Below, one piece after another: positions 6,515 through 28,692 of a stretch of 32,442 nt of DNA. Location of the stretch: NCBI GenBank assembly GCA_964632315.1, contig CAZWEM010000011.1:70182-102623 (forward strand). Reading direction: 5' to 3'. The position numbers were made by a program, and so were the translations under genes. The stretch comes from an uncultured archaeon. Lineage in GTDB: Archaea; Asgardarchaeota; Lokiarchaeia; Sigyniarchaeales; SOKP01. Position 1 is the first letter of the stretch; each line of letters starts with the position of its first letter. The notes below the pieces were generated by a model. That model did no database searches. It saw only the letters and a list, made by a program, of their open reading frames with translations, and was not told the origin of the DNA.

Positions 6515-9376
6515 ATGATTTTAGATCAAAAAAAAACAGAAAATCTCGTAGCTCGATATAGTAGATTGTTGAATTCGATTAACAATTTGATATTTATAGT
6601 CACATCTAACTCTGATTTCGTAATTGAATATTGTAATGAATGTGAATTTTTAAATAGTTTGGGATATTTATCAGAGGAATTAATTGGTAAGTCTTTCCTT
6701 GAGATTGTTCATCCAGAGGAGAATAGTCTTATTTCTAGGGTTTTAGGACAAGTTTCTGAACCAATAATCCAAACTCAAGAAATTAAAATCCTAAATACTA
6801 AGAAAGAAGCGGTATGGACAGAAATTAAAGTGAATAAGCTCATAAGTGATGATAAAGAACTTCGATTAATAATTAATCTGAGTGATATAACAAAAAGAAA
6901 AAGATTAGAAGAAGAAATCAAGGTAAACGAAGAGAGATTTAAAAAAATCACGAATACAATTCCAGAAATTCGCTTCTGGAAATTATTTAATCCAAAAAAA
7001 TTTGAAGAAGCATTACAAAGCTCTTATGAGCTGTTAGAAATTGTAATGGAAAACATTCCACAATACATTTACTGGAAGGACATGGAACTTAATTATTTAG
7101 GATGTAATGATAATTATGCAAACCTCATTGGACTTGATTCTCCTGAAAGTATAATAAATAAATCCGATGAGGAAATTTTATGGGATGAGACTCAAATAAA
7201 ACATAATGAGACACATGAAAAGAAAGTAATAGAGACAAACAACCCTAAATTTAGAATGACAGAATCTTGGATCTTAAGAAACGGAAAAAAAATGTGGGTT
7301 AATTGCAATCGAGTGCCACTCGTAGATTCTGATGGAAAAGTGGTAGGAATCCTTGTGACTTTTGAAGATATTACAGAACGAAAGTTAGCAGAAGAAACAT
7401 TACAGATGGAACATCAAAAATTAGAACGTATAATGGAGACTAATCCTGCTGGGATTCTGTCTGTTGACAAAGAAGGAAAGATCACTTATATTAACTCTCA
7501 AGCAGAAAGAGTTCTAAAAACGACAAAGTCCAAGCTACTGAATACGTATCTAAAAAATGGTATTTTTAGAATGTTAGACAATAAAGGAAATCCCCTCAAA
7601 CAGAAAAAACGTCCTTATCAAATTATTCACAAAACTAAAAAACCTCTTTATGATCAACAAATCATCTTTGAAACAACTCACAACGAGCGAATATATATCT
7701 CTTTGAATGGTACTCCGTTGTTAGATGCTGAAGGAGATATTGAAAACATTATCTTTACTGTAGCAGATATAACTGAAAAAGTTTTTGCGGAAGAAAGAAT
7801 CAAAGAATCGGAAAAGAAATACAGAGATTTATTAGAAACCTCATCAGTCGGTATATTAGAAATTGAAGTACAAAACGAAGTTATATCTTATGTGAATTTA
7901 ATAGTAATTGAAATCATGGGATATCAAGAAGATGAATTCTTATATGAAAATTTAAACAAGATTATCCACCCTGATGATTTCATGAAATTATTAAAGTCTA
8001 ATGAAGGAATGGATTTAGAATTTCGAATAATTACGAAAGATGGGAAATTAAAGTGGCTACATGGGAAGAGATCAGACCAATATGATGATGATGGAACTCT
8101 TATCTTATTTCGCCTTTGGGTGGAAGATGTTACCGAGAAGAAAATGTATGAGCAACTAATATATGAACTTAATATAAACTTCTTAAATTTCACGACCAAC
8201 ACTCAGAGGAATATCCAATTATTACTGAACACTTGCTTAAAGCTTCTTGAAGGGAATTTAGTGCTATATGTTAACAAGCGAAGTTACGAAGAAAGGGTTG
8301 AATATGTTATCACTACAAATAAGGGTGAGATAGTAAGATATTCGGCAACTGATTTTGAGGAAAAAATCTTCTGCTCCGAAATTTTTCAAGAAAAACATGA
8401 TTTTCCTCAAGAATATTTTAACGTGCATGAAACTGAATATGCTCTTACTGATAAATTCATAAGGGAGAATGATATTCACACGTGTTATGGTAAATTAATA
8501 TTAACCGGAAATGAATTAAACAATGCAATCTGCGTTCTTTATAAAAGCACTCCGATAATCACCAATCAAAACAAGTTAGTATTATTTTTAATCTGTGATG
8601 CTTTAGAAATAGAGCAGAAACGTTGGCAAGTACAAAAACATTTAGAAGAACAAAACAAAATGCTTAGTGAGATAAATAGATTAAAATCTGAACTTTTTTC
8701 TAGGACTTCTCACGAATTAAAAACTCCTTTAATCTCTATTAAGGGATTCACGGAATTATTGCTGAAGTTGCATTCTAACAAATTAGATGATGATGTTATT
8801 TCAATATTAGAAGAGATTAAAAAAGGCAGTAAACGGTTGGAAAATTACATTAACGCAATCGTTGAAAGCTCTCGATTAGAGCAGGGATTAATAAGACTTA
8901 ATAAAACAAGAGAGAATCTCTCATTTTTAATAAATTATTGTGTCAGGCAGCTTGAAGGAATGGCTGAGCTTAGAGATCAGAAGATATTCGTTAATATTTC
9001 AGAAGATATGACATCACACTTTGATAAAGAAAGAATATATGAGGTCGTGTCAAACTTGTTGTTAAATGCAATAAAGTATACACCAATAGGGGGGACTATC
9101 ACCATAACCTCTAAAGATGATGGAAAAAACTATACTATATTATTTAAAGATACAGGAATTGGTCTAACAGATCAGGAAAAAAAGCAATTGTTTACTCAAT
9201 TTGGTAAAATCGAAAGATATGGTCAAGGATGGGATGTTGGCATAGAGGGTACAGGTCTGGGATTATATATTTCAAAAGAAATTGTAGAATTACACGGAGG
9301 TGTTATTTCAGCAACTTCAGAAGGTCGGAACAAGGGAAGCACGTTTTATTTTTCAATTCCAAAAATTGAGGAATAA
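6515..9376 (+). CDS. Cytoplasmic multi-PAS sensor histidine kinase, with a possible GAF-like segment before HisKA
   Basis: About 4 PAS/PAC repeats (IVHPEE, IYWKD...DITERK, IIHPDD), H-box TSHELKTP, N-box NLLLNAIKYT, DTGIG, GTGLGLYI. No obvious TM segment. Confidence 0.92.
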   Translation: MILDQKKTENLVARYSRLLNSINNLIFIVTSNSDFVIEYCNECEFLNSLGYLSEELIGKSFLEIVHPEENSLISRVLGQVSEPIIQTQEIKILNTKKEAVWTEIKVNKLISDDKELRLIINLSDITKRKRLEEEIKVNEERFKKITNTIPEIRFWKLFNPKKFEEALQSSYELLEIVMENIPQYIYWKDMELNYLGCNDNYANLIGLDSPESIINKSDEEILWDETQIKHNETHEKKVIETNNPKFRMTESWILRNGKKMWVNCNRVPLVDSDGKVVGILVTFEDITERKLAEETLQMEHQKLERIMETNPAGILSVDKEGKITYINSQAERVLKTTKSKLLNTYLKNGIFRMLDNKGNPLKQKKRPYQIIHKTKKPLYDQQIIFETTHNERIYISLNGTPLLDAEGDIENIIFTVADITEKVFAEERIKESEKKYRDLLETSSVGILEIEVQNEVISYVNLIVIEIMGYQEDEFLYENLNKIIHPDDFMKLLKSNEGMDLEFRIITKDGKLKWLHGKRSDQYDDDGTLILFRLWVEDVTEKKMYEQLIYELNINFLNFTTNTQRNIQLLLNTCLKLLEGNLVLYVNKRSYEERVEYVITTNKGEIVRYSATDFEEKIFCSEIFQEKHDFPQEYFNVHETEYALTDKFIRENDIHTCYGKLILTGNELNNAICVLYKSTPIITNQNKLVLFLICDALEIEQKRWQVQKHLEEQNKMLSEINRLKSELFSRTSHELKTPLISIKGFTELLLKLHSNKLDDDVISILEEIKKGSKRLENYINAIVESSRLEQGLIRLNKTRENLSFLINYCVRQLEGMAELRDQKIFVNISEDMTSHFDKERIYEVVSNLLLNAIKYTPIGGTITITSKDDGKNYTILFKDTGIGLTDQEKKQLFTQFGKIERYGQGWDVGIEGTGLGLYISKEIVELHGGVISATSEGRNKGSTFYFSIPKIEE

Positions 9377-12289: not shown

Positions 12290-13591
12290 TTATTTCGGTT
12301 TCAAGGATTTTGGAATGGTAAAATAGAATATTGAGCCCTTTCCTACTTCACTTTCAAATGCAATACTTCCTCCGTGAAGTTCGACCAATCTCTTTGTTAA
12401 TGAAAGTCCAAGTCCAGTGCCTTCCGTTACTTTCACGTGTGGATGATTGATCCTCGTGAAATCTGAAAAGATTTTATCAAAATTTTCCTTGCTAATTCCT
12501 ATACCAGTATCTATCACGTCAAACCTCCATTCCTTCTCATTATCGTAAATCATTAGGACTACAATACCTTCTAACGTATATTTAAACGCATTACTTAGGA
12601 GATTATACAATATTTCTCTAAATCGAATTGGATCAGCATTTAAAAATCTATTTTTTTCTAACCCTAACACCTTAAAAACTAAATTCTTTTTCTTATATAA
12701 TGGACTTAATTCTCCTTTCATTTTTTGAATAGTGTTTTCGAGATCAATTTGTTCTATGCTTAATTTTAACTTCCCCGACTCTATTTTTGATATATCAAGA
12801 ATCTGGTTTATAATTTCCAATAAATGATTAGCAGAGTCCTTTATATCGTAAATATAAGATTTTTGGGTCTCGTTTAAGGACTTAAACTCATCTTCAATCA
12901 ACAAATCAGAAAAACCTAAAATTGAATTCATTGGAGTTCGCAATTCATGAGACATAATTGCCATGAATCTGCTTTTAAAATGAGAAGCTTTCATAATCTC
13001 CTCTATATAGAGTTCCTTTTTTTCTAATAAATCCCTTAATGCCTTGGTCTTCTCTTCTACTTCATTCTTAAGGCGTTCAGTAAACGTATCTTTTAATTGT
13101 TCCATTTTCTTTCTTTCAGTAACATCTCTAGCAAATCCATAAAATCCTACCTTATTTCCACTATAATCGTATAATAAATCAATCAAGCCTTCAAAATGAA
13201 TGATTTTATTCTTATTCGTGATAATTTTAATCTCCATTGATGGCGGGAATGGAATTTCAGTCTTGAAGACTTTATTAAACTTTTTGTACACATCATTAGA
13301 TGTTTCTTCATTAAAAATGGTTTGATAGTTACTCCCGGTCAATTCTTCCTTTGAATAATCCACGATTTCACAAAAATTAGCATTCACATAAGCAAAATTA
13401 CCCTGTAAATCAACTTCATAATATCCCTCTCCCATATTTTCGATGATTTTTCGATACCTTCCTTCTCTTACTTTCAGTTCAAGTGGCTTGTTATTAAAAC
13501 CCTTAAATTTCCTTTTTATATCAACCATTACGATATTTTTTTCTAACTCAACCTCCTCTTTTATGCTTATAAGCTGGATTCTTAAAGACAC
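12290..13591 (-). CDS. PAS sensor histidine kinase (start may be the downstream ATG of MVDIKR)
   Basis: One PAS domain (RYRKIIENMGEGYYEVD...RDVTERK), H-box MSHELRTPMN, NLLSNAFKYT, DTGIGI, GTGLGLSL. Confidence 0.92.
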   Translation of the reverse strand: MSLRIQLISIKEEVELEKNIVMVDIKRKFKGFNNKPLELKVREGRYRKIIENMGEGYYEVDLQGNFAYVNANFCEIVDYSKEELTGSNYQTIFNEETSNDVYKKFNKVFKTEIPFPPSMEIKIITNKNKIIHFEGLIDLLYDYSGNKVGFYGFARDVTERKKMEQLKDTFTERLKNEVEEKTKALRDLLEKKELYIEEIMKASHFKSRFMAIMSHELRTPMNSILGFSDLLIEDEFKSLNETQKSYIYDIKDSANHLLEIINQILDISKIESGKLKLSIEQIDLENTIQKMKGELSPLYKKKNLVFKVLGLEKNRFLNADPIRFREILYNLLSNAFKYTLEGIVVLMIYDNEKEWRFDVIDTGIGISKENFDKIFSDFTRINHPHVKVTEGTGLGLSLTKRLVELHGGSIAFESEVGKGSIFYFTIPKSLKPK

Positions 13592-14411: not shown

Positions 14412-14537
14412 ATGTTCCTTTAATTCCCAAGTTTCCAAAATTCAGTGCTTCTGTACACCCAATAGATTTAAATTTGTATCTTACTTATCAAGTATCGTTA
14501 AACATAAAAAATTAAACGCAAATTGGAGGTTAACCAC

Positions 14538-15590
14538 GTGAAAAATGATTTTATTCCGTTTGAAGTAGTCGACCTTTCGCGAAATCATTATCGGGAACGT
14601 TCCATTCCACTCGTGAAGCCCGAAGCAGATGTCTTGAACGAGTTGATTTCCTATTATCATAATGACGTGTTTCACGTTCTCAATTTGAGAAAGAAGCTTA
14701 ATACGTTTTGCACCTCAGAGTTTTTTACCATGGCTTTCACCGCTCATCGCGGACGAGTCGCCTCATTAGGATTGTTCAGTCAGACGGGGGAGGTGCTTAC
14801 CGATGCCATCACTAAATTCCCAAATCTTCTTGAGCTATATTTGTTTAACTCGATTCCCGAACCGCGATTTAAAGAAGATGAGGAGCCTTGGCGCCTTAAA
14901 ACACTTCCCGGGAATATTGATAAGTTAAAGTCCTTACAATTAATAGAAATGCAAAATTTTAATGAATTAAAGACCTTACCTGAATCATTCGGGAGATTAG
15001 CTTCCCTCAAAAAACTCGAAATCTCTGGCTGCGGTTTCACTTCTATACCAGAGTGCATAGGAAATTTGAAAAGTTTAAAGGAATTGAGTTTTTGGGCTCA
15101 AGATAAGAAATTAGAACAAATTCCTGAATCCATTGGCAATCTCTCTTCTCTTGAATTCCTCGATTTAGGCGAAAATAGCTTGCAGTCGCTTCCCGAGTCT
15201 TTTGGAAAATTAAAAGCTCTCAAGAAACTATTCCTCCATTATAACCAGTTTGACAGCCTTCCCAGTTCCGTCTGCGAATTGACATTTCTTGAGGAACTAG
15301 ATCTCGACCATAATAATCTCGGAATATTGCCAGATTGCATTGGAAATCTCACCTCATTAACAGAGTTTTCGCTCAAGCATAATAATATCACTTCTTTCCC
15401 CAGCTAATTTAGCAGGCTCACTAATTTAGAGTCTCTATCACTACGGGAAAATAAATTAAGAAGAATTCCTGAGTCCGTTTTTACCTTGCCTTCACCCAAA
15501 TATCTTTATTTAAGCGGCAATCCATCCTTGCCTTTTACTCCAGAAATGCGTAAAAAACTCGAAGATCGAGCTGTGGAAGTCTTTATCTAA
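14538..15590 (+). pseudogene. Leucine-rich repeat protein interrupted by an in-frame TAA at 15405-15407
   Basis: About 9 LRRs of ~23 aa (LPESFGxLxxLxxLxLxxNxL). The frame continues past TAA as FSRLTNLESLSLRENKLRRIPESVFTLPSPKYLYLSGNP...EVFI* to 15590. Probable GTG start at 14538 after GGAGG (14525-14529). Confidence 0.8.
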
Positions 15591-15949: not shown

Positions 15950-16564
15950 TTGAATATGAGCGATAATGTAGAGAAATATATAAAGCGTAAAGTTTATAAA
16001 GGTACGAGCTCAAAAATCGCGCAGAAATTCGTCGATGCTGGTTTAGAAAAGATTAGAGCATGTATAAACTGTGGAACTTGTAGTGGTTCGTGTCCTTCTG
16101 GAAGACGAACAGCTTATCGAACCCGATCAGTTATCCGTCGTGCTCTAATGGGAGATGAATCCGTGCTAGAAGATATTGATATCTGGTTATGCTCGACTTG
16201 TTATTATTGCTATGAACGCTGCCCGCGTAATATTCCCGTCACAGATATGATAATAAAGCTTAGAAACATAGCTGTGGAAGAAGGTCACATTCTAGATTCA
16301 CATTTTACATTAGCAAATGACATTTTTTATCAAACAGGACACGGTGTTCCCGCTAACGGAGACGCTAATAAAAAATGGAGGGATCTAAGAGAATCCTATG
16401 GATTACCGCCATTACCACCCACAGTTCACACGCATCCTGAAGCACTTAAAGAATGTCAAGAATTAATGAAATCGATTGGATTTAGAAAATTGATGGATAA
16501 CGTAGAGAAAATCAAGGCAAAAGAAAGAAAAGAGAAAGAAAAGGCAGAAAAGGAGGAGAAATAA
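15950..16564 (+). CDS. hdrC: Heterodisulfide reductase subunit C (probable start ATG 15956)
   Basis: Two [4Fe-4S] motifs, CINCGTCSGSCP and WLCSTCYYCYERCPR, followed by TGHG and PPT. First gene of hdrCBA. Confidence 0.93.
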   Translation: MNMSDNVEKYIKRKVYKGTSSKIAQKFVDAGLEKIRACINCGTCSGSCPSGRRTAYRTRSVIRRALMGDESVLEDIDIWLCSTCYYCYERCPRNIPVTDMIIKLRNIAVEEGHILDSHFTLANDIFYQTGHGVPANGDANKKWRDLRESYGLPPLPPTVHTHPEALKECQELMKSIGFRKLMDNVEKIKAKERKEKEKAEKEEK

Positions 16565-16566
16565 AG

Positions 16567-17517
16567 ATGAATGAAAACAAAAAAAGGAAGTATGCCTTCT
16601 TTCTTGGATGTGTTGCTCCAAATCGATATCCAATGATTGAATCTTCAATTCGAGCGGTATTTGATCATCTAGGTGCCGAAATCTTAGAAATGGAAGGTGC
16701 ATCGTGCTGTCCTGCTCCGGGAGTTTTTCGAGCTTTTCACATACCAACTTGGTTGGTAATAGCAGCTCGGAATATTACAATAGCTGAAGAACTAGGCGTT
16801 GATATCATTACTGGTTGCAATGGATGCTATGGAACTTTAAGAGATGCATGGTGGGAATTAAACCATAAACCGGAACTAAAGAAAATGGTTAATGAACATC
16901 TTGCGAAAGTTGGGAGGCAATATAAAGGTAATATTGAACCAAAACATATTGTTCAAGCGTTATATCAAGATATGGGAATGGATTACTTGAGAGATTTTGT
17001 CAAGCATAGATTTAAAGATCTCAAGGTGGCAGTCCATTATGGTTGTCATATCGTGAAACCAAGCGATAAAAGGCCTTGGGGTGGTGAGTATGAATGCCCA
17101 ACCTTTCTTGATGAATTAGTCGAAATGACAGGAGCGAAGAGCATTGATTATAAAGATAAGTTCATGTGTTGCGGGGCTGGTGGAGCGGTTAGAACAGCTG
17201 TAAAAGAAGTAGCCGCAGACTTTTCCCGAGAGAAGTTAACCAATATTCGTGATGCGGGTGCTGATATTATAATAGATTGCTGCCCTTTCTGTCATTTGCA
17301 GCTTGATTTAGGTCAAATGGAAGCAAATAGCGTTTACGGAGCCATGATTGGAGAACCTTTTAAAATTCCTGTTATATACATTACTCAATTACTAGGATTA
17401 TCCTTTGGAATTGATCCAAACCAATTAGGACTAATTAAAAATCATGAATTAGCTGGTGTGTCACCATTCATTCCAATTGAACCATTTATGCAAAAAGTAA
17501 AAGAGGAATTAACTTAG
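16567..17517 (+). CDS. hdrB: Heterodisulfide reductase subunit B
   Basis: Two CCG-type domains: FLGC...SCCPAPG...CNGC and HYGCH...CCGAGG...CPFCHLQLD. Confidence 0.95.
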   Translation: MNENKKRKYAFFLGCVAPNRYPMIESSIRAVFDHLGAEILEMEGASCCPAPGVFRAFHIPTWLVIAARNITIAEELGVDIITGCNGCYGTLRDAWWELNHKPELKKMVNEHLAKVGRQYKGNIEPKHIVQALYQDMGMDYLRDFVKHRFKDLKVAVHYGCHIVKPSDKRPWGGEYECPTFLDELVEMTGAKSIDYKDKFMCCGAGGAVRTAVKEVAADFSREKLTNIRDAGADIIIDCCPFCHLQLDLGQMEANSVYGAMIGEPFKIPVIYITQLLGLSFGIDPNQLGLIKNHELAGVSPFIPIEPFMQKVKEELT

Positions 17518-17521
17518 GAGG
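17516..17521 (+). promoter_or_regulatory. Shine-Dalgarno site for hdrA
   Basis: AGGAGG overlaps the hdrB stop and lies 9 nt before ATG 17531. Confidence 0.7.
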
Positions 17522-17530
17522 AATAGAAAA

Positions 17531-19549
17531 ATGACTGAATCAACAAAAGAAATTAAAGTAAGTAGAAACACAAAACCTAAAATTGGTGTTTATGTATGCC
17601 ATTGCGGAGTGAATATAGCAGGGGTTATCGACGTCGTCAAATTAAAAGATTATGCCTTAACTTTACCCGATGTTGTTTTAGCTAGAGAATATAAATTCAT
17701 GTGTAGTGATAACGGACAGAAATTGATCCGCGATGATATTGAAGCGGGATTGATTAATAGGGTTGTTGTTGCTGCTTGCTCCCCTAGAATGCATGAGCCA
17801 ACCTTCAGGTTAGTTTGTAAAGAAGCGGGGCTAAACCAATTTCTCTTTGAACAAGCTAATATTCGCGAGCATGCTACTTGGGTAAATATGTATGACTCGG
17901 AAGGAGCCTATGATATTGCAAAGGATCACGTGAGAATGGCAGTTGCGAAAGCACGAAGATTATTACCACTGGAGGTACAACGGGTGAAAGTTGAGCCTTC
18001 TACTCTCATTATAGGTGGTGGAATTGCAGGGATGAATGCTGCTTTAGATCTCGCAGATGAAGGTTATAAAGTATATTTAGTAGAGAGAACACCAACTATC
18101 GGAGGTCACATGGCTCAATTAGATAAAACCTTTCCAACAATGGATTGTTCAGCGTGTATCTTGACCCCAAAAATGGTAGATGTTGGGAGAAAAGACAAAA
18201 TTGAAATACTAACTTACTCAGAAGTGGTTGATGTATCTGGATATGTCGGAAATTTTGAAGTAACAATAATGAAAAAACCACATTATGTCGATCAAGAAAA
18301 ATGTACTGCTTGTGGTGCGTGTGTAGAAAATTGTCCAATTACAGTTGGGAATGAATTCGATTTAGGTATGGCAACTAGAAAAGCAGTTTACATTCCCTTT
18401 CCCCAAGCTGTACCTGGACAGTATACTATAGATATGAATGCTTGCGTAAAATGTGGAATATGTGCTCGACCTGATGTGTGTGAACCAGGTGCTATAAATT
18501 ATGATGATAAACCAGAATATATGAAAGTAAAAGTTGGCACAATCATCGTTGCAACAGGTTGGGATTTATATGACCCTACAGAGTTGAAACAATATGGATA
18601 CGGAAGATTTCCAAATGTGATTAATAGTTTACAAATGGAACGGTTATTATCTTCCTTTGGTCCCGTTTTAGGGAAGCCCGTGAGACCTTCAGACTTAAAA
18701 GCCCCCCATAAAATTGCCTTCTTACAATGTGTAGGAAGTAGAAACTTTAGAGAGGGAGGTCATACCTATTGTTCAAGAGTGTGTTGCATGTATGCTACAA
18801 AACAAGCCAGACAATACAAGGAAAAACATCCAGATGCAGAAGTATATATTTTTTACATGGATATTAGAGCCTTTGGTAAAGGATATGAAGAATTTTATGA
18901 ATCTGCATCTGAAAATTATGGGATTAATTATATAAGGGGGAGAATCGCTGAAGTATATGAAGGAGAGAATCACAATATTATAATACGATCCGAAGACACA
19001 CTTATACAAACACCGATTGAATTAGAAGTAGACATGTTCGTACTATCTTGTGGTCTCGAGGCTTGCGCCGATGCAGGAGAAGTAGCAAGTTTGTTGAGCG
19101 TTCAGAGGTCTGCCGATGGATTCTTCATGGAAGCACATCCAAAACTGAGACCGGTTGATACATTAACAGATGGAATTTTTGTTGCTGGAGTAGCTCAAGG
19201 TCCAAAAGACATTCCAGACACCGTAGCACAAGCTAAAGGTGCTGCTTCAAGTGCTGCAGCACTAATGTCTCAAGGAGAAGTAGAAATTGAGCCCTATTAT
19301 TCCGTTGTATTAGAACACTTATGCTCTGGTTGTCGAAGTTGTCAATCATTATGTCCATTTGGGGCTATAGATTTTGATGAGGTAAAGAATGTTGCCGTGG
19401 TCAATCCTGCATTATGCAAGGGATGCGGTACCTGTGTTAGTGCGTGTCCTTCGGGTGCAATGGTTCAAAATCATTTTGCGGGCTTTCAATTGGAATCAAT
19501 AATAAATGTCGCGGTCAAGCAATCTTCCATCGAAAATGGAGGAAAATAA
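17531..19549 (+). CDS. hdrA: Heterodisulfide reductase subunit A (FAD, Fe-S), Cys-type
   Basis: VYVCHCGVNI, ACSPRMHE, ANIREH, GGGIAG, KTFPTMDCSACI, inserted ferredoxin, QCVGSR, CSRVCC, GPKDIP, C-terminal 2x[4Fe-4S]. Confidence 0.96.
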   Translation: MTESTKEIKVSRNTKPKIGVYVCHCGVNIAGVIDVVKLKDYALTLPDVVLAREYKFMCSDNGQKLIRDDIEAGLINRVVVAACSPRMHEPTFRLVCKEAGLNQFLFEQANIREHATWVNMYDSEGAYDIAKDHVRMAVAKARRLLPLEVQRVKVEPSTLIIGGGIAGMNAALDLADEGYKVYLVERTPTIGGHMAQLDKTFPTMDCSACILTPKMVDVGRKDKIEILTYSEVVDVSGYVGNFEVTIMKKPHYVDQEKCTACGACVENCPITVGNEFDLGMATRKAVYIPFPQAVPGQYTIDMNACVKCGICARPDVCEPGAINYDDKPEYMKVKVGTIIVATGWDLYDPTELKQYGYGRFPNVINSLQMERLLSSFGPVLGKPVRPSDLKAPHKIAFLQCVGSRNFREGGHTYCSRVCCMYATKQARQYKEKHPDAEVYIFYMDIRAFGKGYEEFYESASENYGINYIRGRIAEVYEGENHNIIIRSEDTLIQTPIELEVDMFVLSCGLEACADAGEVASLLSVQRSADGFFMEAHPKLRPVDTLTDGIFVAGVAQGPKDIPDTVAQAKGAASSAAALMSQGEVEIEPYYSVVLEHLCSGCRSCQSLCPFGAIDFDEVKNVAVVNPALCKGCGTCVSACPSGAMVQNHFAGFQLESIINVAVKQSSIENGGK

Positions 19550-26601: not shown

Positions 26602-26889
26602 ACTAAGAAAAGAAAGAATTGACTATATCAATATACACATGATAAATTATAGATGTTAGTTTTGGTTCGTTTTAATTATAAAATTATATTCCTAATTTTT
26701 CTTGAATCATTATTTGCTTAATAATTATGATTGGATCAGGTAAACCTTTTCCATAGTTGATTTAATTTTTTGAAAAGTTTCATCATTCTCTCCTGATAAG
26801 AAATAAATATGATATGTATTTAAAATAAAAAATTTTTTACGTTAGAAATTTTTAATTTACAATAGTAGTTGTGAGGTAAAATATTTTTT

Positions 26890-28692
26890 ATGAAAATTGG
26901 AAGAGGCAAAATTTCGAAAAAAAAATCAGGAAATCGAGGATATTCAAGTATCTGGTTGTACATTCCAAGCAAGATCGCAAAGGATAGTGATTTTCCATTT
27001 CGAGATAAAGAAGAAGTAATGATAGAGTTAAAAGGAGAGCACATGGAAGTTAGAAAGGTATATAATTTGAGCGATCTCACCAAACCTTACGGAATTGAAG
27101 AACCTACGATTCCGAAACTCATAGAAAGCAAGGCAGTAATGAATAAAGATAAGCCTTTCATATACTTTAAGGACGAAATTTATAGCTATAACGAAACAAA
27201 TCTATTTTCAAATCGTATTGCTAACGGTCTAAAAACGCAAATTAAAAAATTAAAATTGAAAAATCCAAATATCTCCCTACTCTTTCCAAATTGTCCCGAT
27301 ACATTATTTTGCTGGTTTGCTGTTGCCAAAATTGGTGGGGTTTTTGTACCCATAAATTATCATTTAGAAGGGGATCTACTTGAATTCGTTCTACACAACA
27401 GTAAAACAAAAATTTTAATCATAGATTATAGATATTTTGATGCTGTTAATGAAATCTATAAAAAATTAACCCAGATCAAAAAAATATTCATTAAGAATGC
27501 TCCGAAAGATTTCACCTTTACTGGAAAATATGCAGATTTTTCTGAAATCTTTTCTAACAACTCTAAGAACCCCAATGATGTTATCACTAGTTTTCATCCC
27601 CTTGAGATAATGTATACTTCTGGAACAACAGGAAAACCAAAAGGGGTTTTATATAGAAATTATACTACATTGTCGGGAATTAGTGTTGGAAAGTTATTTG
27701 AAGGATCTATTTTCGACGAGGATGTTACTAAATTTTATTGTCCACTTCCTTTATTTCAAGGATTAGAAAGATACTTCTTAATAATTCCAATCATGTTTTA
27801 TGATAAGTCAATAATTATAACGGAAAATTTTGAGATAAAGACATTTTGGAACGATGTTAAAATGTATAGCCCTGAAGTGTTTTGTTATTATGGAGCTCAT
27901 CTTACAACATTAGTAAATCAACCTCCATCAACCTTAGATAGAAATCACTCAATTAAGTTCGCATTTGGCGCAGGTGCACTTAAGGAGATATGGGAATCTT
28001 TTGAACGAAGATTTGGAATACAGATTGTTGAAACTTGGGCTCTTGCTGAAGGAATTGGCATAACAATTAACAATGTGGGTTCTAAAGGTGGAAAACTAGG
28101 TTCCGTAGGAAAACCCGTTCGAGGTGTTGAGATTAAGATAGTTGATTCAGAAGGAGAAGAACTTCCTCCTGGAAGAGATAATATTGGTGAAATATGTGCT
28201 AGAACAAGACTACCCTTTGAACTAGAATATTATAACTTACAAAAAGAAACCATAACAAAAAAGAAAGATGGAAGATGGGTTTTTACAGGTGATTTTGGAT
28301 ACAAAGATCAACAAGGATTTCTCTATTATTTAGGTAGGAAGTCTGATATGATACAAAGAGAAAACGAGACTTTTTTCGCTATAGATATTGAAATTGTTGC
28401 AAATTCCCATCCACTTATTGTGGAAAGTGCTGTGTTTGAGGTCGACAACAGTTCTTTAGAAAACGAACTTAAAATATGTGCAGTGATCCAAAAAGGTGTT
28501 ACTATTACTCCTAGGGAATTTTATAAGTTTTTAAAGAAAAATTTAGCTTACTTCATGGTACCACGATATATTGAGTTCAGAGAAGAATTACCTAAAAATG
28601 CAAATGAATTGATACAGAAATTCATACTAAGGAATGAATGGAATTCAGGAGTATCATTAAAGAATACACATGATATGCTAAAAGTAGATTGA
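26890..28692 (+). CDS. AbrB/MazE-like N-terminal domain fused to a CaiC-like AMP-binding (acyl-CoA ligase) domain with degenerate catalytic motifs
   Basis: N-terminus GYSSIWLYIPSKIAKDSDFPFRDKEEVMIEL, P-loop YTSGTTGKPKGV, FTGD, GRKSD, VPRYIEFREELPK. Confidence 0.85.
   Translation: MKIGRGKISKKKSGNRGYSSIWLYIPSKIAKDSDFPFRDKEEVMIELKGEHMEVRKVYNLSDLTKPYGIEEPTIPKLIESKAVMNKDKPFIYFKDEIYSYNETNLFSNRIANGLKTQIKKLKLKNPNISLLFPNCPDTLFCWFAVAKIGGVFVPINYHLEGDLLEFVLHNSKTKILIIDYRYFDAVNEIYKKLTQIKKIFIKNAPKDFTFTGKYADFSEIFSNNSKNPNDVITSFHPLEIMYTSGTTGKPKGVLYRNYTTLSGISVGKLFEGSIFDEDVTKFYCPLPLFQGLERYFLIIPIMFYDKSIIITENFEIKTFWNDVKMYSPEVFCYYGAHLTTLVNQPPSTLDRNHSIKFAFGAGALKEIWESFERRFGIQIVETWALAEGIGITINNVGSKGGKLGSVGKPVRGVEIKIVDSEGEELPPGRDNIGEICARTRLPFELEYYNLQKETITKKKDGRWVFTGDFGYKDQQGFLYYLGRKSDMIQRENETFFAIDIEIVANSHPLIVESAVFEVDNSSLENELKICAVIQKGVTITPREFYKFLKKNLAYFMVPRYIEFREELPKNANELIQKFILRNEWNSGVSLKNTHDMLKVD

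Follow-up and report, generated by a model that had tools for sequence, protein, structure and literature searches.

A predicted AbrB-type domain joined to an acyl-CoA-ligase fold lacking key catalytic residues in an Asgard archaeon: a candidate self-regulating, metabolite-sensing gene switch

Why would a gene of an Asgard archaeon join a small domain resembling the AbrB family of DNA-binding proteins to a complete acyl-CoA ligase fold, and then lose the residues on which the chemistry of that fold depends? The question is raised by a single open reading frame in a stretch of 32,442 nucleotides (hereafter ‘the window’) from an uncultured archaeon (Asgardarchaeota; Lokiarchaeia; Sigyniarchaeales; SOKP01; assembly GCA_964632315.1, contig CAZWEM010000011.1, forward-strand positions 70,182 to 102,623). 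A first-pass annotation, made from the sequence alone, had described the first ~57 residues as an AbrB/MazE/SpoVT swapped-hairpin domain and the remainder as an apparently catalytically impaired ‘ANL’ ligase, and had inferred that an enzyme was repurposed as a sensor of ATP/AMP, fatty acids or acyl-CoA that controls transcription. The features of the locus are collected in the table below.

Features of the fusion gene and its upstream region (window coordinates)
Position	Strand	Feature	Remarks
26819..26827	+	TATA-like box TTTAAAATA of the gene's promoter (inferred)	A/T-rich; a TATA-like element lies 10-15 nt upstream of the first palindrome in many orthologues too
26837..26848	.	Putative operator O1, TTACGTTAGAAA	One mismatch to TTAC-N4-GTAA; 53 nt before the ATG
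26857..26868	.	Putative operator O2, TTACAATAGTAG	One mismatch; 33 nt before the ATG; in most orthologues the proximal site is an exact palindrome arm pair
26873..26877	+	Shine-Dalgarno-like GAGGT	12 nt before the ATG
26890..28692	+	CDS of the AbrB-ANL fusion protein	600 aa
26890..27060	+	Predicted N-terminal AbrB/MazE-like swapped-hairpin domain	Residues 1-57
27127..28206	+	ANL large (N-terminal) subdomain, Pfam AMP-binding	Residues 80-439; P-loop (A3) at 27613-27645; A4 reads PLFQ and A5 reads WALAE
28387..28605	+	ANL small (C-terminal) subdomain, Pfam AMP-binding_C	Residues 500-572
28609..28611	+	Leu574 codon	Position of the A10 adenylation Lys

The first step was to ask whether the sequence reads as described, and every detail that had been noted is present. 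The reading frame is open, and the translated protein carries the reported N-terminal string at residues 6-56, YTSGTTGKPKG at 242-252, PLFQ (in place of PLFH) at 287-290, WALAE (in place of YG.TE) at 383-387, TGD at 466-468, GR at 482-483, NETF (in place of GENI) at 492-495 and PKNANELIQK at 568-577. Translation of the N-terminus, the failure of which had been named beforehand as a ground for refutation, is supported by the Shine-Dalgarno-like element in front of the annotated start, and by the fact that all of about 115 full-length homologues carry the N-domain in frame and strongly conserved (with I8, Y18, W22, Y24, P26, F35 and F37 invariant in a 54-sequence alignment).

The assignment of the N-domain rests on a predicted fold, on intermediates in sequence space and on a predicted mode of dimerization; direct sequence comparison is weak. 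A Pfam search with residues 1-70 alone returned nothing, and only 1 of 42 orthologue N-domains hit PF04014 (E 0.098). A profile of the N-domain found nothing among PDB sequences at E values up to 10, a profile built from its stand-alone relatives found only noise there (with MazE at E 0.6-1.1), and hhalign comparison with six canonical AbrB domains of the same genome gave the correct register but a P value of only 0.057. An AF2 model, in contrast, displays a beta-beta-alpha-beta-beta topology (strands at residues 7-12, 19-24, 43-48 and 51-56 and a helix at 27-30) with a pLDDT of 89.6. When that model was compared with solved structures, the ten best of 48,161 PDB representatives by VIA-align were AbrB, MazE, VapB, SpoVT (2w1t), the histone-like protein 5itj and C56 of pSSVi, albeit with Z-scores of only 3.9-2.3, and the leading Foldseek hits were MazE, VapB and AbrB with a best E-value of only 1.9.

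A bridge to the canonical family was provided by the N-domain profile, which finds 350 proteins, mostly stand-alone ones of 55-90 residues. Of 68 of these, 22 hit PF04014 weakly, and one protein (designated P0174) is matched both by the N-domain profile (7e-8) and by PF04014 above its cut-off. Two of the stand-alone relatives lie in a Mu-like virus contig and beside an integrase; such small proteins are usually regulators. Finally, an interleaved homodimer is predicted with a score of 0.57 (the best of three controls scored 0.00), a mark that was reached by 20 of 30 proteins solved as pairs of one chain and by 1 of 23 solved as single chains. The runs agree in at least 95% of contacts, the partner's pLDDT is at least 75, and the pairings (beta2-beta2', beta4-beta4' and beta1-beta3') are those of swapped hairpins, although similar dimers have been solved and the pass may therefore reflect likeness to them.

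In the larger part, both ANL subdomains are recognized by Pfam (PF00501 at E 3e-55 and PF13193 at E 6e-8) and full-length Foldseek matches reach E 1e-37 and TM 0.8. The best NCBIfam matches are the PRK06155-type ATP-dependent acyl-CoA ligases and CaiC, with which the protein shares the C-terminal pattern YFMVPR[YF]IEF...LPK....K..K, but its scores are far below the curated cut-offs (278 against 722 bits for PRK06155, and 243 against 651 bits for CaiC), and those enzymes possess no N-domain.

Is the loss of catalytic residues genuine, and is it derived? A HMMER alignment to the oxalate-CoA ligase chain 5ie0_A places Leu574 opposite the lysine of that enzyme's SGK, and alignment to the 46 nearest unfused ligases places it opposite Lys (35) or Arg (11). 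At the A4 His, the A5 Thr and the Asn of the A8 GEN motif the protein carries Q290, A386 and T494, whereas the same 46 ligases carry His in 46, Thr in 43 (Ser in the other 3) and Asn in 46. Position 483 (Arg) is likewise invariant or nearly so in the unfused enzymes, and all of these positions vary or are lost across the fused family, where the A10 position is occupied by Leu in 41 members, Phe in 27, Glu in 17, Met in 9, Lys in 6 and Arg in 3. Basal fused members retain a full motif set, with Arg at A10, while later clades have lost different motifs. Erosion of the catalytic motifs is therefore real and derived, in a pattern that fits an enzyme turning into a sensor; nevertheless, the P-loop (including K251), E387, D468 and R483 are intact here and conserved in the window's clade, such that residual or altered catalysis is not excluded.

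A further line of evidence, which was not part of the first-pass annotation, came from the region upstream of the gene. A 12-bp palindrome, TTAC-N4-GTAA, lies 31-64 bp in front of the start codon in about 28 of 32 orthologues, usually as two copies. An exact copy occurs between -100 and -15 in 23 of the 32 orthologues as compared to 4 of 3251 upstream regions in this genome, and two or more sites with at most one mismatch occur in 18 of 32 as compared to 2 of 3251 (an enrichment of more than 100-fold over genome background), although the orthologues are related and the counts overstate their independence. The position of the distal site and its 20-bp spacing to the proximal one are conserved in Loki-type orthologues, and the window's pair is the only such pair at 20-bp spacing in the 4.45-Mb genome. 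Because each of its two sites carries a mismatch, and because sites with at most one mismatch occur at chance frequency in the window (20 found, 17.75 expected), these two copies rest on orthology alone.

The search was then extended to other possible targets. In related loci collected with an alignment of the whole protein, 11 of 12 further exact sites are intergenic and sit at conserved places in front of neighbouring operons in other lineages. In this genome, by contrast, no second target was found. A weight-matrix scan gave 83 hits of 12 bits or more, mostly inside genes, and 17 of 70 exact sites are intergenic against about 11.6 expected, which is not significant. An attractive perfect palindrome upstream of an HpaB-family gene (position 9107 of the contig designated C53) is absent from the orthologous promoters of seven related genomes, with or without the fusion gene, and is therefore not claimed as a target, and the genome's two DUF2284 genes lack the site. 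The stand-alone relatives of the N-domain do not carry the palindrome upstream, and synteny with the neighbouring DUF255 gene is not conserved in the genus.

Taken together, the first-pass interpretation is supported in both of its halves, with the conserved palindrome as an additional argument, and the best reading (at a probability of roughly 0.6) is that the gene encodes a self-repressing, one-component transcription regulator with an ANL-derived ligand sensor. In this view, residues 1-57 would form an interleaved homodimer whose basic beta1-beta2 loop (KKKSGNRGY), together with the start of its helix, would read the palindrome. Two such operators 20 bp apart would lie on one face of the DNA, between a TATA-like box and the start codon, and their occupancy should block assembly of the pre-initiation complex or the transcription start, giving negative autoregulation. 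The ANL part (residues about 63-600), retaining its nucleotide- and ribose-binding residues K251 of the P-loop, E387, D468 and R483 but having lost residues needed for adenylate formation, would then bind an adenine nucleotide, an acyl-adenylate or an acyl-CoA (a list of possible ligands that could not be narrowed), and its conformation or oligomeric state would tune DNA binding. The architecture, the fold assignment, the loss of motifs relative to the nearest enzymes and the conservation of the putative operator are supported by computation; that this protein binds DNA at that operator, that it represses, that it is catalytically dead and what it senses are all inferred from sequence, and another factor might bind the palindrome.

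The rival that survives best, although it appears unlikely, is a bifunctional enzyme and repressor of the BirA type, in which the ANL domain still makes an acyl-adenylate or acyl-CoA, slowly or with a substitute residue such as the near-invariant K577, and the bound intermediate acts as co-repressor. The conserved nucleotide-binding residues are in keeping with such a scheme, as are the complete motif sets of basal fused members (whose Arg at A10 is shared by 11 of the 46 unfused relatives), the acyl-CoA metabolism genes that neighbour the gene in several lineages, and the fact that the AF2 model resembles adenylate-forming conformations (rmsd about 4 A) far better than thioester-forming ones (about 10 A). 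However, four residues that are invariant or nearly so in the nearest enzymes (or, at A10, always Lys or Arg) are all replaced in the window's protein, K577 aligns with a Lys or Arg that the active enzymes possess in addition to the catalytic lysine and so is not a substitute, and the loss of different motifs in different clades points to relaxed selection on catalysis. The remaining alternative, that the N-domain serves only as a dimerization or protein-binding module for an unusual ANL enzyme, for example a non-adenylating CoA ligase like PtmA3, while the palindrome is bound by another regulator, draws on the weak fold scores, the lack of a direct Pfam hit, the frequency of metabolic neighbours and the existence of non-adenylating ANL enzymes, but is the least likely of the three because the palindrome moves with the gene through unrelated genomic contexts and across Asgard lineages (as is typical of an autoregulated factor), its dyad symmetry fits a symmetric AbrB-type dimer, the stand-alone relatives are of a kind that usually regulates, and the basic, conserved beta1-beta2 loop lies outside the predicted dimer interface.

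Searches of the available literature found nothing on AbrB-ANL fusions and nothing useful on ANL members lacking the A10 lysine, but several systems offer partial comparisons. SpoVT of Bacillus subtilis similarly places a swapped-hairpin DNA-binding domain at the N-terminus of a larger ligand-binding domain; its sensor is a GAF domain rather than an ANL fold of about 540 residues, and the present family is archaeal (Asgard) and linked to PF04014 by sequence only through intermediates. BzdR of Azoarcus sp. CIB (PMC3602430), in which an HTH domain is joined to a shikimate-kinase-like domain that senses benzoyl-CoA, provides a precedent for an enzyme fold that lost its activity and became the effector domain of a regulator; here too basal members look enzyme-like and derived ones eroded, but both folds differ, and the present case is inferred from sequence alone. 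BirA, the biotin protein ligase and repressor of E. coli, has a DNA-binding domain fused N-terminally to an adenylate-forming enzyme, and autoregulation through a palindromic operator with the adenylate as co-repressor would be the mechanistic analogue; BirA, however, is catalytically active and belongs to a different adenylating superfamily with a winged-helix domain. PtmA3, a non-adenylating ANL acyl-CoA ligase (Wang et al., Nat Chem Biol 2018), has reportedly given up the adenylation half-reaction, but it is still an enzyme, has no DNA-binding domain and is bacterial.

A more far-reaching possibility, which remains tentative, is that these proteins constitute an Asgard-specific family of transcription factors caught at several stages of the conversion of an adenylate-forming enzyme into a ligand sensor. 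Basal (Helarchaeota-type) members would still be working ligase-repressors of the BirA kind, whereas derived clades, including that of the window, would have lost different catalytic motifs independently and become pure sensors, and all would act through the same TTAC-N4-GTAA operator on lineage-specific local regulons (a corrinoid-protein cassette, an ABC transporter and a small membrane protein).

Gene regulation in the Asgard archaea, the closest prokaryotic relatives of eukaryotes, is almost unexplored experimentally, and the locus offers a concrete and testable candidate regulator-operator pair, consisting of a defined protein, a defined 12-bp palindrome and defined promoters. It would add the large ANL enzyme fold to the short list of enzymes recruited as sensor domains of transcription factors, and within one family it displays a graded series from complete to eroded catalytic motifs, a ‘natural experiment’ on how enzymes become regulators. 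If the ligand is an acyl-CoA or acyl-adenylate, the protein would be an archaeal analogue of fatty-acid-responsive regulators, built from entirely different parts.

The open reading frame under study is intact and encodes 600 amino acids, and every sequence string on which the first-pass annotation had relied (for an AbrB-like N-terminus, for retained nucleotide-binding motifs, and for altered catalytic motifs that include a leucine at the position of the A10 adenylation lysine) is present in it, so that the original observation holds. Pfam identifies an AMP-binding domain at residues 80-439 (E 3e-55) and an AMP-binding_C domain at residues 500-572, while NCBIfam places the protein nearest to PRK06155 and CaiC-type ligases, but far below the cut-offs of those families. 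A GAGGT sequence lies 12 nt before the ATG. The organism is an AT-rich Asgard archaeon; homologues are named by their sources as Promethearchaeota or Lokiarchaeota and as Thor-, Hel-, Hermod- and Hodarchaeales, and the DNA recurs in salt-marsh metagenomes. The coordinates of the gene, of its upstream elements and of other features noted in the window, in this genome and in related loci are collected below.

Features of the fusion gene, its upstream region, other genes of the window, and loci in this and other genomes
Feature	Location	Strand	Sequence or remark
TATA-like element	26819-26827		TTTAAAATA; upstream of both palindromes
First palindromic site	26837-26848		TTACGTTAGAAA
Second palindromic site	26857-26868		TTACAATAGTAG; upstream of the GAGGT
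Fusion gene	26890-28692	+	600 aa
Leu574 codon	28609-28611		A10 position
PAS-domain histidine kinases	6515-9376 and 12290-13591		953 and 433 aa; about 3 kb apart on opposite strands; no response regulator noted among the ORFs scanned
Leucine-rich-repeat protein	14523-15407		294 aa; LRR proteins also neighbour a fusion orthologue in locus L013
Heterodisulfide-reductase-like cluster	15950-19549		three co-directional genes with 4Fe-4S, CCG and HdrA-like flavoprotein domains
Exact intergenic palindromes elsewhere in this genome	contig C53: 9107, 3644; contig C37: 9905		upstream of three sets of genes
Exact palindromes before the DUF2284 gene (other Lokiarchaeial genomes)	locus L001, about 4290; locus L012, about 2263		TTTACGTCAGTAAA
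Exact palindromes after the fusion gene (distant-clade loci)	L033, L035, L036, L037, L043 and L048, about 1816-1823 nt after the fusion gene's start		
Stand-alone relatives of the N-domain	locus L016, 5001-5180; locus L018, 3240-3473		59-77 aa

The family is conserved but patchy in its distribution. More than 115 full-length homologues of 599-631 aa cover 97-100% of the query, N-terminus included, and in a 54-sequence alignment the N-terminal 60 residues are as conserved as the ligase body, with I8, Y18, W22, Y24, P26, F35 and F37 invariant. The gene is nonetheless accessory: it was found in 11 of 201 sampled genomes of the phylum, in 28 of 81 genomes of the family, and in 2 of 21 other genomes of the genus, with some genomes carrying two or three copies. 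In this genome the N-domain occurs once, beside about 18 ordinary ANL paralogues and 8 canonical AbrB domains.

The assignment of the N-domain as a divergent AbrB/MazE-type ‘swapped hairpin’ rests on prediction and on indirect sequence relationships, because direct sequence evidence fails: Pfam gives no hit, the N-domain profile finds no PDB sequence, and an hhalign comparison with this genome's own AbrB domains gives the right register but only P 0.057. Evidence from the fold is consistent, but weak in score. AF2 predicts a beta-beta-alpha-beta-beta arrangement with pLDDT 89.6; the best Foldseek matches are MazE, VapB and AbrB, at E about 2; and an exhaustive comparison with 48,161 chains places only AbrB, VapB, SpoVT, MazE and related proteins in the first ten positions, with Z 3.9-2.3.

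Transitive sequence evidence is better. The N-domain profile finds 350 proteins among 1.84 billion, and, apart from fragments of the fusion, most of these are stand-alone proteins of 55-90 aa that share the pattern GKGK...YIP...DSxFPF...V.I...LII.K. Of 68 such proteins, 22 hit PF04014 weakly and 7 hit SymE, and one of them (designated P0174) is matched by the N-domain profile at 7e-8 and by PF04014 above its gathering score. Two stand-alone relatives lie, respectively, in a contig with Mu-type portal, terminase and Mu F genes (a Mu-like virus contig) and beside a phage-type integrase, settings in which small regulators are common; they form a family of small proteins that share the FPF pattern, only some of which match Pfam's AbrB/MazE model, mostly weakly. 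A further protein from the representative library (P0131, 222 aa) joins the same type of N-domain (E 2e-17) to a Sigma54_DBD domain (PF04552, E 1e-44), an unexpected partner in a sequence taken at face value.

A homodimer of the N-domain is predicted, with a score of 0.57 against a best of 0.00 among three controls, a mark that was reached by 20 of 30 proteins solved as pairs of one chain and by 1 of 23 solved as single chains. The runs agree in at least 95% of contacts, and the pLDDT of the partner is at least 75. The predicted contacts (beta2-beta2', beta4-beta4' and beta1-beta3') correspond to the interleaved topology of this superfamily, although, because such dimers have been solved, the result shows likeness rather than proof. 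The basic loop at residues 10-19 remains outside the predicted interface.

The ligase fold has lost catalytic residues that its nearest relatives keep. HMMER aligns Leu574 with the lysine of SGK in the oxalate-CoA ligase chain 5ie0_A. The 46 nearest unfused ligases, which are 26-35% identical and come from bacteria and Thermoplasmata, share the C-terminal pattern YFMVPR[YF]IEF...LPKT.T.KV.KYKL, and were compared with the fused family at each motif position. K251, E387 and D468 stay invariant.

Residues at ANL motif positions in unfused ligases and in the fused family
Position	46 nearest unfused ligases	Fused family (115 sequences)	This window
A3 S244	S 46/46	S78, A19, E13	S
A3 T246	T 46/46	T78, V21, A7	T
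A4 H290	H 46/46	Q69, H22, S14, L8	Q
A5 T386	T43, S3	V52, T22, A20, N11	A
A8 R483	R 46/46	R71, K22, N10	R
A8 GEN, N494	N 46/46	T50, I27, V12; never N	T
A10, position 574	K35, R11	L41, F27, E17, M9, K6, R3	L

A tree rooted on the unfused ligases, with moderate support values, places members with arginine at A10 and all other motifs intact at the base (protein P0078 from Helarchaeota, followed by P0106 and P0114). The derived clades then differ from one another: the window's clade (65 sequences) lost the A10 lysine and the A5 threonine but keeps the P-loop and R483; a second clade (29 sequences) lost P-loop threonines and R483, and contains the six members with lysine at A10, which lack those other residues; and a third clade lost R483 to asparagine. 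Erosion of different motifs in different lineages, on a well-conserved scaffold, is what relaxed selection on catalysis with retained ligand binding would produce. The full-length AF2 model (pLDDT 88) resembles adenylate-forming conformations (rmsd about 4 A) rather than thioester-forming ones (about 10 A), which is a property of the model only.

Alignment at the start codon of upstream regions from 32 orthologues revealed a conserved palindrome that may serve as an operator. These regions share little except TTAC-N4-GTAA (with the extended consensus tTTAC-katm-GTAAa) at -31 to -64, usually in two copies that are spaced 20 bp apart in Loki-type sequences and 13 bp apart in the distant clade; six further genome representatives, three of them new, agree. 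The background in this genome is 70 exact sites in 4.45 Mb, and the only 20-bp pair is the one before the fusion gene. An exact site at -100 to -15 was found in 23 of 32 fused orthologues, against 4 of 3251 upstream regions in this genome, and two or more sites with at most one mismatch were found in 18 of 32, against 2 of 3251. The orthologues are related, and these counts are therefore not independent; the flanking sequence has diverged completely, however, so the motif is under selection, and it is not a general promoter element. The basal, enzyme-like Helarchaeota member (locus L014) also has the sites.

Of 12 further exact sites in the fetched loci, 11 are intergenic and at conserved places. 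In two other Lokiarchaeial genomes (L001 and L012), the site lies 82-83 nt before the DUF2284 gene that heads a DUF2284, B12-binding and RACo (corrinoid activator) cassette, of which the fusion gene is the last member; in this genome the fusion gene lies elsewhere, and the two DUF2284 genes lack the site. In L013, a site lies 110 nt before a divergent branched-chain-type ABC transporter binding protein. In the six distant-clade loci, an exact palindrome lies directly after the fusion gene, and in five of them it is 92-119 nt before a conserved gene for a 168-176-aa protein (no such ORF was listed in L043). The 168-aa copy read in L037 looks like a multi-pass membrane protein, the same gene in L015 had no Pfam family on record, and it is a candidate regulon member.

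Beyond the putative autoregulatory pair, no target is supported in this genome, where single sites are no more frequent or more intergenic than chance allows. Exact palindromes do lie in intergenic DNA upstream of three sets of genes: an HpaB-family gene (possibly 4-hydroxybutyryl-CoA dehydratase-like), a divergent NMO / ketopantoate-reductase-like pair, and an acyl-CoA dehydrogenase. The theme is coherent, but the hits are not above chance, and the best-looking of them, upstream of the HpaB-family gene, is not conserved in orthologous promoters. The neighbours of the fusion gene in the window are a DUF255 thioredoxin-fold protein, a solute-binding protein, Hdr-like genes and endonuclease V, none of which suggests a ligand. 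In other lineages, the neighbours often belong to acyl-CoA metabolism (enoyl-CoA hydratase, thiolase, a DUF35-type protein, SDR, CoA-transferase and other ligases), which fits an acyl-CoA-related effector but does not prove one.

AbrB domains joined to sensor domains (SpoVT), enzyme folds turned into effector domains (BzdR), and adenylating enzymes that double as repressors (BirA) are known, and non-adenylating ANL members are on record (PtmA3). A search of the literature found no paper describing an AbrB-ANL regulator, and Pfam does not model this N-domain.

The first-pass annotation had inferred an enzyme repurposed as a sensor (of ATP/AMP, fatty acid or acyl-CoA) that controls transcription, and that interpretation is supported by the present computational evidence. 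The best-supported model is a one-component repressor, in which an AbrB-type dimer would sit on each palindrome, over the transcription start region of its own gene, and an ANL-derived domain that binds but no longer activates its ligand would control DNA binding. The fusion itself, the loss of motifs relative to the nearest enzymes and the conservation of the palindromes are results of the analysis, whereas DNA binding, repression, the absence of catalysis and the sensing of a ligand are inferred. A still-active, BirA-like enzyme-repressor is an unlikely alternative here, and is more likely for the basal members than for this one. An unusual enzyme whose N-domain does not touch DNA is a still less likely reading. 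Across the lineages compared, the gene and its palindromes move together through unrelated contexts, and this is the signature of an autoregulated factor with small, lineage-specific regulons.
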